Shown: positions 16,542 to 57,076 of the stretch, piece by piece | Layout: every line of letters begins with the position of its first letter | Position numbering within the stretch: position 1 is the first letter of the stretch | Source: Sphingomonadales bacterium | Lineage (GTDB): Bacteria > Pseudomonadota > Alphaproteobacteria > Sphingomonadales > Govanellaceae | Direction: 5' to 3' | Assembly: GCA_019455285.1 (NCBI GenBank) | Contig: JACFMS010000014.1 | Span: 9,925 to 73,924, forward strand | Length of the DNA stretch: 64,000 nucleotides | Translations under genes and position numbers: made by a program | The notes under the pieces: model-generated | Databases searched by the model: none | Seen by the model: the letters and a program-made list of their open reading frames with translations, nothing else | Told to the model about the DNA's origin: nothing

Positions 16542-16628
16542 GCCCAGGTGGCGGAATTGGTAGACGCACTAGCTTCAGGTGCTAGCGGTCGAAAGGTCGT
16601 GGAGGTTCGAGTCCTCTCCTGGGCACCA
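16542..16628 (+). tRNA. tRNA-Leu (anticodon CAG), class II with long variable arm, CCA encoded
   Basis: GCCCAGG...CCTGGGC acceptor stem. Anticodon stem-loop CTAGC-TTCAGGT-GCTAG. Long variable arm GCGGTCGAAAGGTCGTG. T-arm GGAGGTTCGAGTCCTCT. 3' ACCA. Confidence 0.93.
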
Positions 16629-54550: not shown

Positions 54551-54551
54551 G

Positions 54552-54902
54552 TTATTGAGCGCGCGCGGCTTTATAGGCGCGAATGGCCTCATTGAATTCG
54601 TTGCCCGTCGCCACTTCGGCATCAACCGCTGCGTTATAGCGTTCGACAAAGCTTTTCTGCAGATCGGCCGTCAGTTGTTCCTTGGGAATCAAGGCTTCCT
54701 GGGCCTGCAGGCAATTGCGAAACGTCTCGCTGTCGGCGAGGAATTTTTTAACCGCGCTCTGGGCAGCGATCATATCCTCCTGGGTGGCGGCGGCGCCGCT
54801 AGGGATGGCCGGCGACGGCGGCCGGGTGCAATCGTCAGCAAAGGCGCTGCCGGCACTGAGTGCTAAGGTCATAGTAAAGGCAATGGTCACAATAGATTTC
54901 AT
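54552..54902 (-). CDS. small secreted protein on the opposite strand (moron-like)
   Basis: MKSIVTIAFTMTLALSAGSAFA signal (GGAGA 8 nt upstream). The helical mature part has two Cys. Convergent with terL with a 1-nt gap. Confidence 0.62.
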   Translation of the reverse strand: MKSIVTIAFTMTLALSAGSAFADDCTRPPSPAIPSGAAATQEDMIAAQSAVKKFLADSETFRNCLQAQEALIPKEQLTADLQKSFVERYNAAVDAEVATGNEFNEAIRAYKAARAQ

Positions 54903-55207
54903 GAAGCAACGTCTCCAATGAGCAAACCCACGACCGACCGGGATCGGCCGCAACGGAGGCGGATTATAAACTGACGGGCCGGCTAAAGGCTAGCCCATCA
55001 CGATTCCATTAATCACCACCAAGTTCGACGACATTCGGGTCGCGGAGCCAGGCTTCCGGCTCGAACGGCGGCGGCGAGGGCATGCCCTGCAGTTTTTCAT
55101 GACAGGCCCTGACCCCAAGTGCAGACCCGCATGACCTTCGCCGCCCGCGACTATTCGGAGTCCAGACCCATTATTTATGAGTCTGGACCCTAGATGTGGA
55201 GAGACAA

Positions 55208-56428
55208 ATGAATTCACTCAGCGACCGCGTAAAACGCCTGTTCCGGCCAATGGGTGCACCGATCGAAGCCAAGCGGAGCGCCGTCGCCGGTCTCCTGGGT
55301 AGTGAATTTTCCACCTGGGTCGGAACGGCGGGGCCGCGCTGGACCAGCCGCAATTACCGCCGGCTGGCCGAGGAGGGCTATCGCAAGAATGTCATCGTCC
55401 ACCGCTGCGTGCGGCTGATCGCCGAAAGCGCCGCTTCGGTGCCGTGGCGGCTGATCCGCTATGGTAAGGCCATCGACCGCCATCCGCTGCTTGACCTCCT
55501 CAATCGCCCCAACCCGATGGAAGCCGGCAAGGCGCTGTTTGAAAATTTCTACGCCTTCTTGAGCATCGCCGGCGACAGCTATCTGGAGATGGTGACCGCC
55601 GCCGATGGCGCGCCCGTCGAGCTTTACGTGCTGCGGCCCGATTACATGAAGGTTATTCCCGGCACCAACGGCTGGCCGCGCGCCTATCGTTATGAGGCTG
55701 GCGGCCAGGTCCATGATTTCGCGGTTGATCAAGTAACCGGCCAATCGGCGATTTTGCACATGAAAACCTTCAATCCCTTAGACGAGACTTATGGCATGTC
55801 GCCCCTGGAAGCCGCCGCCTTCGGTATCGACATCCATAACGCGGCCAGCGGCTGGAACAAGGCGCTGTTCGACAACGCCGCCCGGCCATCGGGCGCGCTG
55901 GTCTATGAGCCGGGCGATGGCGGCCACTTGAGCGATGAGCAATTCACCCGGCTGAAGGAAGAGCTTGCCGATACCTACCAGGGCGCGCTCAATGCCGGCC
56001 GCCCCATGCTGCTGGAAGGCGGCTTGAAATGGCAGCCGATGGCGTTCTCGCCCCAGGATATGGAGTTCGTCGAAGGCAAGCATGTGGCGTCCCGCGAGAT
56101 CACGTTGGCCTTCGGCGTGCCGCCGCTTCTTCTCAATATCCCCGGCGATAACACTTACGCCAACTATCAGGAAGCCAACCGCGCGCTGTGGCGGCTGACC
56201 CTGCTGCCGCTTCTGGAAAAGACGGTTTGCGCCCTTAATCACTGGCTGGTGGATGGTTTCGGCGACGGCTTGGCGCTCGACATCGATCGTGACGCCATCT
56301 CGGCGCTGCAAGCGGAGCGCGCCGCCGCCTGGGAGCGGGTCGGCGCCGCCCGGTTCTTGACTATAAACGAGAAACGCCGGGCGGTGGGCCTGGAGCCGCT
56401 CCCCGGCGGCGATGTTCTAGTGTCCTGA
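55208..56428 (+). CDS. phage portal protein, HK97 family
   Basis: About 406 aa, MNSLSDRVKRLF... (GGAGAG upstream). Conserved portal core (YRKNVIVHRCVRLIAESAASVPW...GDSYLE...FGVPPLLLNIPGDNTYANYQEANRALW). Confidence 0.93.
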   Translation: MNSLSDRVKRLFRPMGAPIEAKRSAVAGLLGSEFSTWVGTAGPRWTSRNYRRLAEEGYRKNVIVHRCVRLIAESAASVPWRLIRYGKAIDRHPLLDLLNRPNPMEAGKALFENFYAFLSIAGDSYLEMVTAADGAPVELYVLRPDYMKVIPGTNGWPRAYRYEAGGQVHDFAVDQVTGQSAILHMKTFNPLDETYGMSPLEAAAFGIDIHNAASGWNKALFDNAARPSGALVYEPGDGGHLSDEQFTRLKEELADTYQGALNAGRPMLLEGGLKWQPMAFSPQDMEFVEGKHVASREITLAFGVPPLLLNIPGDNTYANYQEANRALWRLTLLPLLEKTVCALNHWLVDGFGDGLALDIDRDAISALQAERAAAWERVGAARFLTINEKRRAVGLEPLPGGDVLVS

Positions 56429-56494
56429 TTTGCGAAATTCGCATGATTTCTATATCAGCGCTTAAGCGAATTTCGCAAATTGAAAGGACACTAG
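56417..56494 (+). repeat. structured hairpin element 1 (CTAGTGTC...CTATATCAG...GACACTAG)
   Basis: Hand-paired as a 10-bp basal stem, a 2/5-nt internal loop, a 14-bp upper stem and a 23-nt loop. The 5' arm contains the last portal codons and the stop. Confidence 0.7.
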
Positions 56495-56508
56495 CAACCT
56501 ATTGAATC

Positions 56509-56588
56509 CTAGTGTCGTTTTGGTTTTTGAAGTTCGTGTGAGCGGCCTATATCAGTCATGAAACGAACTTCAAAAACCACGACACTAG
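56509..56588 (+). repeat. structured hairpin element 2 (CTAGTGTC...CTATATCAG...GACACTAG)
   Basis: Hand-paired as a 10-bp basal stem, a 3-nt bulge, a 16-bp upper stem and a 25-nt loop. It has the same termini and loop motif as element 1 but a different upper-stem sequence. Confidence 0.7.
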
Positions 56589-56726
56589 AGGATGCGCCGC
56601 CCGCTGTACCGAAAAGACACAAATTTCTGAAAAATGGACAGCGGAGCTGGGCAATAAAGGGACGGCGGGCGGGACTTTAATTCAAAAAATAAGAAAAATC
56701 CGCGCAAATGCCGGCCAATCGGCACT

Positions 56727-56742
56727 TGGCACGGTTTCTGCT
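56727..56742 (+). promoter_or_regulatory. candidate sigma-54 (-24/-12) promoter
   Basis: TGGCACGgtttCTGCT versus the consensus TGGCACG-N4-TTGCW: correct GG-N10-GC spacing with one core mismatch. Confidence 0.45.
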
Positions 56743-56794
56743 TTGATGAGGTCGAACGATGTTGCCAATGACAAAGACTTTCGGAGCGACGACC

Positions 56795-56977
56795 ATGACC
56801 AGCGGTAAGCGAATGATTCCTCAAGCAGGCAAACGGCGGGTGGCGATTTGGGCCGCCGCCGCATGGCTTGCCGGGGCGGGAAGCGCTTATGCCGAGAAGT
56901 GGCCGAACCTCGATCCGGCTTTTGTCATTCACCCTCTTCACTCACTCACTCCTGCCCCGGCGTTGCGGTCCTGCTGA
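56795..56977 (+). CDS. hypothetical small secreted peptide (60 aa precursor)
   Basis: MTSGKRMIPQAGKRRVAIWAAAAWLAGAGSAYA / EKWPNLDPAFVIHPLHSLTPAPALRSC. GGAG lies 8 nt upstream. Alternative ATGs are at 56759 and 56768. A strong terminator follows. Confidence 0.4.
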   Translation: MTSGKRMIPQAGKRRVAIWAAAAWLAGAGSAYAEKWPNLDPAFVIHPLHSLTPAPALRSC

Positions 56978-57023
56978 GACGGCGCCGCGCCGGACACCAG
57001 TTACCTTCGCGTCGCAAACTAGC

Positions 57024-57051
57024 GGCCTCTCCCCGGAGAGGCCGTTTTTTT
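57024..57051 (+). terminator. intrinsic terminator inside the head module
   Basis: GGCCTCTCC-ccg-GAGAGGCC stem followed by a T8 run. Confidence 0.8.
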
Positions 57052-57076
57052 ATCCATTGATCGCACGACATAGACA

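Follow-up and report, generated by a model that had tools for sequence, protein, structure and literature searches.

We analysed a 64-kb stretch of DNA from a Sphingomonadales bacterium (contig JACFMS010000014.1, hereafter the window), in which the portal gene ends inside a 172-nt block composed of two hairpins, E1 (56417-56494) and E2 (56509-56588), separated by a 14-nt spacer (Table 1). These coordinates had been given by a first-pass annotation of the window and proved exact. Both hairpins stand on identical feet, CTAGTGTC and GACACTAG, as that annotation had stated, and the pattern CTAGTGTC-N40-70-GACACTAG occurs twice in the window and in none of 100 shuffles. Its stem geometry was reproduced, with lower stems of 10 bp and upper arms that pair perfectly over 15 and 17 nt, as was the AT-rich character of the segment, the GC content being 0.42-0.47 in the element region and about 0.6-0.7 on either side. 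Folding energies are -35 to -39 kcal/mol for both hairpins, whichever strand is folded (z = -8.0 to -9.0), and 0 of 200 shuffles reached such a stability. The upper stems, which had been described as completely different, are identical at 10 of 14 positions when compared in register (TTTGCGAAATTCGC versus TTTTTGAAGTTCGT), and the common positions include the core GAARTTCG found throughout the family described below. Under the bulge rule that holds across the family, E1 and E2 have opposite orientations, so the loop word CTATATCAG, correctly placed by the earlier annotation 7 nt before each 3′ arm, is a degenerate version of the palindromic motif at the apex (GATATC type) and not a directional motif.

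Table 1 Features of the portal gene and of the twin-hairpin block at its 3′ end (window coordinates)
Feature	Position	Strand	Remarks
Portal gene, native 3′ end replaced	55196..56428	+	Pfam Phage_portal, 8.5e-87
Whole inserted element, 172 nt; twin-hairpin MITE, very probably IS630-derived	56417..56588	no strand	L002 and L128 have it at the orthologous site, L003 does not
Left CTAG junction (TA target inside CTAG)	56417..56420	no strand	CTA/TAG flanks in the family; TA duplication in the IS630 family
E1 outer arm, putative left terminal inverted repeat	56417..56442	+	Colinear with IS630-family IS ends
E1 loop, 23 nt, degenerate palindromic apex motif CTATATCAG	56443..56465	no strand	
E1 inner arm, inverted copy of the end	56466..56494	-	Extra nucleotides TGAA make the bulge
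Linker CAACCTATTGAATC	56495..56508	-	IHF-like; CcrM site GAATC at 56504-56508
E2 inner arm, inverted copy of the end	56509..56537	+	TTT bulge at 56519-56521
E2 loop, 25 nt, carries CTATATCAG	56538..56562	no strand	
E2 outer arm, putative right terminal inverted repeat, CTAG-terminated	56563..56588	-	

The portal reading frame stops inside the first arm (GAT GTT CTA GTG TCC TGA), as had been noted, the element supplying the last codons CTA GTG TCC TGA. The contig index has no record of this exact portal protein. Comparison with related clusters identified a corresponding empty site in L003, whose portal is 92% identical to that of the window. There ...GATGTTCTG runs directly into GCGGATG... (the junction is also given as GGCGATGTTCTG followed by GCGGATGCGCCG) with collinear flanks, and the protein ends in ...GGDVLADAPSAVSK, whereas that of the window ends in ...GGDVLVS. 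The 172-nt block lies at exactly this junction point in the window and in its closer relatives L002 and L128, so that the orthologous site is polymorphic for presence of the block, filled in these three and empty in L003; the clusters of both L003 and L004 lack the block and are otherwise collinear. As L003, the sole empty site, reads CTGG and not CTAG, we infer the duplication of TA/CTAG from the synonymous CTA/CTG difference together with the right junction in L002. Insertion took place within the variable tail at the 3′ end of the gene, in a common ancestor of the lineages of the window, L002 and L128 and once the L003 lineage had split off, and it swapped the last nine codons of the portal for two and a stop. 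The linker is identical in the three orthologous copies, and their stems differ by seven substitutions, four of which (4/7) give G.U on the sense strand and none of which is compensated. The insertion polymorphism and this uncompensated drift point to neutrality at the portal locus, and the sequences suggest an element that has been drifting since its insertion, with nothing pointing to a role in the GTA cluster.

A genome scan placed the block within a dispersed family of at least 120 loci, nearly all of them hairpins of 74-80 nt, in diverse Alphaproteobacteria and with several per genome. The family includes at least 63 dimers in which a hairpin, a conserved linker of 12-15 nt and an inverted hairpin follow one another, in unrelated contexts across Alphaproteobacteria. 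The dimers are non-coding, multi-copy units of 160-172 nt; 55 of the 63 listed are intergenic, preference for gene orientation is absent, and there are arrays in which adjoining units have one CTAG in common. CTA/TAG flanks were found at about 90% of 182 family hairpins, and in six of ten checked cases the terminal TAG is the stop codon of a Pfam-confirmed neighbouring gene. An open-frame test for genes ending at this TAG (30% observed versus 27% random) is not discriminating in GC-rich DNA, and Pfam checks were used in its place. The orientation of the hairpins was set by the side of the bulge; spacer or hairpin type gave conflicting orientations. The bulge, of about 3 extra nt past position 10, lies on the inner arm in 63/63 listed dimers, while the outer arms are colinear with true IS ends. 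Stem covariation is strong across the family, and at this level the suggestion that base pairing is kept by compensatory change is real. A strict search for orphan arms returned only degenerate hairpins and a loose search only noise, and the terminal 10-mers, searched as literature strings, matched only unrelated primers. Three complete dimers gave no BLAST match among 72,556 plasmids, and the family appears to be chromosomal only. Absence from plasmids is unusual for a freely mobile element. Viral contigs gave four matches, of which one (L128) is the portal locus itself, and there is thus no phage association. The first-pass annotation had held that many dispersed copies, or absence of the pair from homologous clusters, would make the finding ordinary; the dispersed copies exist and the block is missing from the homologous cluster of a relative. 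Its view of a selected fold bound to the portal gene or GTA operon is not supported by these two observations, the other copies lying in unrelated contexts. As the same element is dispersed through many alphaproteobacterial genomes, it is not a regulatory device of a GTA or phage.

The origin of the arms was visible only when a single 35-nt arm was used as BLAST query (E<=10), full dimers giving no such link; the matches lie at the ends of annotated IS630-family transposase genes. Seven full-length ISs of 1155-1214 bp begin and end with CTAG and have inverted repeats (CTAGTGTCCYGA..GAARTTCG) that match the arms, and their transposases contain DDE_3 and HTH domains. The ends of the Rhodovastum IS (CTAGTGTCCTGATCGCGAAATT) are arms of the E1 type, and the E1 outer arm is identical to both at 21 of 26 positions, with no extra bases past position 10. 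In the E2 outer arm, 18 of 26 positions are identical to the right end of the IS from B. barranii and of that from Komagataeibacter. The left end of the B. barranii IS is A-type and its right end (CTAGTGTGGTGGACCAGAAGTTCGC) agrees at 23 of 25 positions with the B-hairpin outer arm of a Bradyrhizobium dimer (L044); family subtypes show 23-27 nt identity to IS ends. The right end of the IS encodes the transposase C-terminus (…TSDSGH*) together with its stop codon. Elements of the IS630 family insert at TA and duplicate it, and IS630 itself prefers CTAG (PMC2170065). Homologs of the transposase were absent from the window and from about 1 Mb of flanking DNA, and no cognate transposase for this organism was found in the 64 kb and short contigs. 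This, like the lack of orphan arms, marks the element as non-autonomous.

The reverse complement of the linker, GATTCAATAGGTTG, has one mismatch to the IHF consensus WATCAANNNNTTR and is a predicted IHF site. The consensus is present exactly in 12 of 63 listed linkers against a background of 0.03%, and within one mismatch in 36 of 63 against 0.2%. GANTC, the site of CcrM, lies inside the linker and not in the loop in 44 of the 63 listed dimers, and its density of 2.1 sites per dimer against 0.34 expected amounts to a 6-fold enrichment. Certain subfamilies have a linker that matches neither IHF nor GANTC, and GANTC is also located within the IS ends, where it encodes ..DS.. residues of the transposase C-terminus. 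The IHF/GANTC linker suggests the use of host factors for synapsis or timing.

Taken together, the 172-nt block is very probably a non-autonomous MITE derived from an IS of the IS630/Tc1-mariner family, moved in trans and inserting at the TA within CTAG. The MITE pair, one of four candidate roles in the first-pass annotation, was therefore right as to the class of element, although the two hairpins form one composite element and not two independent MITEs. In the proposed mechanism the outermost arms, 56417-56442 and 56563-56588, would serve as left and right terminal inverted repeats, to which an IS630-family DDE transposase encoded elsewhere would bind through its N-terminal helix-turn-helix domain, acting in trans. 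Cut-and-paste transposition would then carry the element into a TA dinucleotide, preferably within CTAG, with duplication of the TA. Beside each end stands an inward-facing inverted copy of it, which makes each half a palindrome of ~78 bp that appears as a hairpin. These inner copies are presumably spoiled as transposase substrates by their extra nucleotides, so that the unit would move whole. The central linker may bend this short element and thereby assist synapsis of ends about 120 bp apart, and the CcrM GANTC site may couple activity to replication-dependent methylation. The stem covariation goes beyond what binding of a transposase to two ends would need, so hairpin or cruciform formation, or a foldback origin, may matter too.

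An RNA structure selected within the GTA head operon, acting as an RNase III processing site or as a 3′ stabiliser of the portal mRNA, is an improbable alternative, although the sense-strand hairpins are very stable and lie directly after the portal stop codon, and four of the seven substitutions in the stems of the orthologous copies produce G.U pairs when the sense strand is read. Transcripts of Correia MITEs are RNase III substrates, which means that a MITE can gain such a role. However, L003 and L004 have otherwise collinear clusters without the element, the same element turns up in unrelated contexts beside genes of every orientation, and the three orthologous copies contain no compensated changes. 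Rfam gave no family match at the gathering threshold and only sub-threshold miRNA-like hairpins at a permissive one. Neither G.U pairs nor folding energy showed strand bias across the family, which removes the expected mark of the RNase III or mRNA module that had been put forward.

We regard as less probable again a repeat domesticated by the host, associated with CcrM or IHF in the manner of the CIR repeats of Caulobacter and serving chromosome organisation or cell-cycle regulation in place of selfish transposition. The neutrality indicated at the locus by insertion polymorphism and uncompensated drift argues against it, some subfamilies have no GANTC, and where GANTC does occur it is already part of the IS ends through the ..DS.. 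residues of the transposase. This leaves on its side the 6-fold enrichment of GANTC with its linker position in 44 of 63 listed dimers, the apparently chromosomal distribution, and the same design of two arms plus linker, with TA termini and intergenic location, in CIR. More doubtful still is a repeat of REP/BIME type, whose single-stranded DNA hairpins would be moved by a RAYT or an IS200/IS605-type HUH enzyme, or an attC-like site. The palindromic units alternate in orientation as in BIMEs, an asymmetric bulge marks that orientation, covariation is strong and strand-symmetric, and an IHF-type site lies between the units, as is reported for RIB elements. Yet the arms are ends of an IS630-family (DDE) transposon, which also displaces the attC- or IS200-like site proposed in the first-pass annotation; the units measure 74-80 nt and not 20-40 nt and have CTAG feet in keeping with a TA target, GTAG or CGTC tags are absent, and so is linkage to Y1/HUH or integrase genes. 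Least credible is a protein-binding upstream element, with IHF site and enhancer, acting on the sigma-54-like promoter that follows after about 140 nt, as the first-pass annotation had suggested: the IHF-like site (56495-56507) does lie upstream of TTGGCACGGTTTCTGCTTT (56727-56745), but L003 and L004 retain the promoter-like motif and the small ORF downstream of it without the element, the flanks in L003 being intact, and the linker motif accompanies the mobile family wherever it is found.

Read as an IS630-derived MITE, the block has a deflationary meaning for the GTA cluster, its hairpins not being a conserved regulatory device. It is the scar of a transposon and has left the portal with a shorter tail, and annotators should therefore mask it. 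Its wider interest lies in a widespread alphaproteobacterial repeat of unusual two-hairpin design with an identifiable IS630-family parent. The restriction of the bulge to inner arms suggests a way in which a composite MITE can go on transposing in one piece. Twin-hairpin elements also break short-read assemblies and give stop codons and hairpins to the genes they adjoin.

Among known systems, the RUP of Streptococcus pneumoniae is a MITE derived from the IS630 family, for which IS630-Spn1 has been proposed as the mover. MITEs of this type likewise are small, non-coding, dispersed and intergenic, with IS630-like terminal inverted repeats and TA at the termini or target, and their mobilisation in trans is presumed. 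In contrast, each end is doubled here to a foldback of ~78 bp, giving two hairpins and a linker in place of one stem formed between the two ends; 3 nt are inserted in the inner copies, the centre resembles IHF and GANTC sites and the hosts are Alphaproteobacteria. The Correia/NEMIS elements of Neisseria (155-bp form) produce transcripts that form hairpins and are RNase III substrates, and their transposase is not identified. They share a length of <200 bp, inverted repeats of about 25 bp, a TA duplication (in Correia's case), hairpins in transcripts and a central IHF site, proposed in Correia as an aid to transposition. Sequence and host are unrelated, however, the two ends of Correia pair in one stem, and the parent IS family is identified for the alphaproteobacterial twin-hairpin family. 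REP units measure about 35 bp and bear GTAG-type tags; they are associated with RAYTs and favour the 3′ ends of transcription units. The BIME-1/RIB/RIP elements of E. coli resemble the block in design only, with two opposite palindromic units and an IHF site reported between them, whereas here the arms are DDE-transposon ends without orientation preference. [quoted passage not shown] The sequences of Br-REP1 and Br-REP2 from B. japonicum differ from that of the element.

The closest described architecture, compared by description only, is that of CIR. The name stands for Caulobacter CcrM-associated intergenic repeats, reportedly introduced by Chen and Shapiro in 2003. These too are alphaproteobacterial and intergenic, with two stem-loops and a linker, TA termini and a conserved GANTC, and their mode of mobility has been described as unresolved (Delihas 2008). 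By description CIR measure about 110 bp with GANTC in the loop, whereas the units here are of 160-172 bp with GANTC in linker and arms. We tentatively raise the possibility, itself open to considerable doubt, that the family is a previously uncharacterised 'double foldback' MITE combining IS630 ends, inverted copies disabled by the 3-nt insertion, and a central IHF/CcrM site that would supply the bend, and possibly the coupling to replication, by which ends only about 120 bp apart could synapse. CIR, known from Caulobacter and Brucella, may be the same family or a sister family, and if so the parent transposon family of the CIR repeats would be identified.

The two hairpins at the 3′ end of the portal gene, E1 and E2, form a repeat of transposon origin whose position there is incidental, and their structure is real but ordinary. 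A search for the bipartite pattern CTAGTGTC…GACACTAG that bounds both finds these two copies in the 64 kb and none in 100 shuffles. Whichever strand is folded, the energies are -35 to -39 kcal/mol (z = -8.0 to -9.0), and no shuffle folded as well as E1 or E2. Sequence and folding thus bear out the first-pass annotation in its description of two bounded hairpins with a 14-nt spacer, and it was also right that the segment is AT-rich amid GC-rich DNA (GC 0.42-0.47) and that the first arm of E1 supplies the last codons and stop of the portal ORF (…GAT GTT CTA GTG TCC TGA). Its view that the upper stems are unrelated in sequence does not hold, as 10 of 14 positions are shared when the stems are placed in register. 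The word CTATATCAG is indeed common to both loops but is a degenerate copy of a family-wide palindromic apex motif (GATATC type). The hairpins are flanked by a GTA-type head cluster comprising large terminase, portal, DUF6127, S78 prohead protease and HK97-type capsid genes. A short-read Logan contig (L001) ends within E2, at window position ~56578, as a repeat or strong palindrome would lead one to expect.

Features of the window and of insertion sequences (IS) with matching ends
Feature	Location	Description
E1 hairpin	56417-56494	bounded by CTAGTGTC…GACACTAG
Linker GAATC	56504-56508	GANTC-type CcrM site; window linker has one mismatch to the IHF consensus
E2 hairpin	56509-56588	bounded by CTAGTGTC…GACACTAG
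Sigma-54-type promoter-like motif	56727-56745	TTGGCACGGTTTCTGCTTT; conserved in relatives' GTA-cluster contigs L002, L003 and L004, with or without hairpins
72-aa ORF	56759-56977	3′ of the promoter-like motif; no Pfam match; hydrophobic signal-peptide-like segment
Intrinsic terminator	57021-57056	strong; just before the DUF6127 gene
Antisense ORF	54552-54953, minus strand	in the ~650-nt terminase-portal gap (54551-55195)
tRNA gene	16542-16625	only Rfam match of the window at gathering threshold
Rhodovastum IS	both ends	CTAGTGTCCTGATCGCGAAATT; E1-type arm, 21/26 identical to the window E1 outer arm
B. guangxiense IS	ends	CTAGTGTCCTGAGTCACAAGTTCGC and CTAGTGTCTTGAACCAGAAGTTCGC
B. barranii IS	left and right ends	left CTAATGTCCCGAGTCACAAGTTCGC (A-type); right CTAGTGTGGTGGACCAGAAGTTCGC (B-type)

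By its portal homologs the source organism falls among uncultured Alphaproteobacteria near Govanella and Emcibacter, and the contigs encoding the closest homologs were compared together with the IMG/VR contig L128. Both hairpins occupy the same place in L002 (portal 98% identical) and are present in L128 as well. In L003 (portal 92% identical) both flanks are collinear, yet the junction …GGCGATGTTCTG|GCGGATGCGCCG… is uninterrupted and the portal is nine codons longer than that of the window (…DVLADAPSAVSK*). L004 (portal 76% identical) has no copy of the block either. The 172-nt block at 56417-56588 is an insertion. Loss of the portal tail was probably tolerated, since the tails of homologs past '…GGD' differ in both length and sequence. 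As the empty allele in L003 reads CTGG, we can only infer target duplication at this site, through an ancestral CTAG suggested by the synonymous Leu codons CTA and CTG and by the compatible right junction of L002 (CTAG|CGGATG). The three filled copies diverge by 2-5%, similar to the portal gene, at nine variable positions (seven stem, two loop, no linker), none of which is compensated; in this small sample of three copies there is no sign that the fold has been maintained. The intergenic segment directly downstream (56589-56758) diverges by ~14% between the window and either L002 or L128, where L002 and L128 differ by 3.5% and the portal by 2-4%, which suggests local recombination or a hypervariable segment.

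With the promoter-like motif, 72-aa ORF and terminator, a small independent transcription unit seems to interrupt the GTA head cluster here. The antisense ORF between terminase and portal, for which no Pfam family is on record, is also called as a gene on the minus strand of L002 (9345-9695) and L004 (8360-8713).

A scan of one genome per species with the pattern CTAGTGTCST-N40-70-ASGACACTAG returned at least 120 loci, nearly all of them 74-80-nt hairpins and often several per genome. Hosts among the matches listed include Afipia, Bradyrhizobium, Hoeflea, Hyphomicrobiaceae, Rhizomicrobium, Mesorhizobium, Devosia, Asticcacaulis and many alphaproteobacterial MAGs. Viral contigs gave only four matches, and three complete dimers searched against 72,556 plasmids gave no match. 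A relaxed search of the retrieved loci yielded about 180 hairpins, along with 63 dimers built like that of the window, namely from a hairpin, a 12-15-nt linker (consensus CAAyyTATTGATT[C]) and a second hairpin. Fifty-five of the 63 dimers are intergenic, with no preference in the orientation of flanking genes (++ 15, -+ 13, -- 12, +- 10). These dispersed copies, the absence of orientation preference and the empty sites of L003 and L004 speak against the earlier reading of a selected fold tied to the portal gene or GTA operon, and nothing indicates a GTA-specific function. Locus L020 (4100-4434 and 7571-7740) carries two dimers head-to-tail with one CTAG common to both, an arrangement consistent with new elements entering the CTAG that terminates a copy already present; the same 8 kb also holds a further dimer and a monomer. 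Distant hairpins at L125 (6097-6172), L094, L097, L121 and L126 keep the 10-bp foot CTAGTGTCST on quite different upper stems (e.g. GTCTCCGAATTGCC). The subtypes analysed therefore cover only part of the family, or of its parent ISs.

Among 70 non-redundant hairpins, preselected as foldable with complementary feet, the 10-bp lower and 15-bp upper stems are paired in 97.3% of cells, and both partners have changed in 18 of 25 stem pairs (288 cells); shuffle and slide controls all score far lower. No variation occurs in the first six pairs (CTAGTG), and conservation is strong in the core GAARTTCG. We found no strand asymmetry in G.U pairs (38-53 on either strand) or, at significance, in folding energy, which argues for a DNA-level palindrome and not a strand-specific RNA. 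An extra 2-4 nt (mode 3) falls on the inner, linker-facing arm in all 63 dimers and on the outer arm in none, so the two hairpins of a dimer are mutually inverted. The consensus site of IHF is WATCAANNNNTTR; the reverse complement of the linker, (G)AATCAATAAGTTG, matches it exactly in 12/63 dimers and within one mismatch in 36/63 (background 0.03% and 0.2%), which, as the copies are related by descent, is motif conservation and not independent enrichment. Each dimer has on average 2.1 GANTC (CcrM) sites, where 0.34 would be expected, and the linker contains the site in 44/63 dimers.

The origin of the arms was sought with a single 35-nt arm at permissive E-value against annotated plasmids. The matches lay at the ends of Roseomonas and Rhizobium genes that carry an IS630-family transposase annotation. 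The Roseomonas transposase has DDE_3 and HTH domains, and 736 plasmid records contain homologs of it. Its ORF overlaps the arm at the 3′ end; read on the other strand, the arm encodes …ARTSDSGH*, with the TAG of the terminal CTAG serving as stop codon. Copies of this IS630 subgroup (L129 2501-3586; L132-L139) encode the transposase C-terminus in their right inverted repeat (…RTSDSGH*, …RTSGPPH*), with the terminal TAG as stop and often with GANTC within the C-terminal codons. Seven full-length ISs (1155-1214 bp, CTAG to CTAG) have inverted repeats matching the hairpin arms, and the right end of the B. barranii IS is 23/25 identical to the B-hairpin outer arm of the Bradyrhizobium dimer L044. 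By these end matches in the Rhodovastum, B. guangxiense and B. barranii ISs, the outer arms of a dimer are the counterparts of the left and right IS ends. The window outer arms are colinear with IS ends, the extra nucleotides being confined to the inner arms. We found no transposase homolog in the window or ~1 Mb of flanking DNA and no orphan arms bracketing longer DNA, so the elements are non-autonomous.

IS630-family elements move by cut-and-paste, inserting at TA, which is duplicated, and their transposase binds the inverted repeats via an N-terminal HTH domain (Feng & Colloms 2007, PMC2170065); a preference of IS630 for TA within 5′-CTAG-3′ is cited there from Tenzen & Ohtsubo 1991. CTA/TAG lies just outside GTGTC…GACAC in ~90% of 182 hairpins, including partner hairpins for which the search pattern had not demanded it. 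About 14 dimers share exactly 4 nt with a neighbouring gene, and in 6 of 10 such frames tested the terminal TAG is the stop codon of a Pfam-confirmed gene. This pattern is consistent with elements that enter CTAG at its TA and preserve the target, many such sites in GC-rich genomes being TAG stop codons.

The block is thus an inserted member of a dispersed family whose arms are IS630-family ends with CTAG termini. An IS630-family transposase acting in trans would recognise the two outer arms, excise the unit and integrate it at TA. The inner arms, with their extra 3 nt, would be spoiled as ends, so that the dimer would move as one unit, and the central IHF-type site may bend the DNA such that ends only ~120 bp apart can pair, as has been suggested for the IHF site in the 155-bp Correia element. 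By analogy with IS10 and IS50, which are under Dam control, GANTC sites in linker and ends might tie activity to methylation by CcrM. The stems covary freely, which suggests a further part for foldbacks, whether formed as a cruciform or as a single-stranded hairpin, or for an origin by foldback.

The family is a new, or at least uncatalogued, MITE, and its twin-hairpin architecture is of moderate interest to mobile-DNA specialists. Bacterial MITEs of this kind are already known, including the IS630-linked RUP and the IHF-containing Correia elements. Br-REP1 and Br-REP2 differ from the present family in sequence. BIME-1/RIB have a similar palindrome–IHF–inverted-palindrome design, but their units are REPs whereas those here are DDE-transposon ends. 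The closest published description, compared as a description only, is that of the CIR repeats of Caulobacter and Brucella, whose outline gives alphaproteobacterial, strictly intergenic elements of ~110 bp with TA termini, 'two arms connected by a linker', a conserved GANTC in a loop and a mobility described as unresolved.
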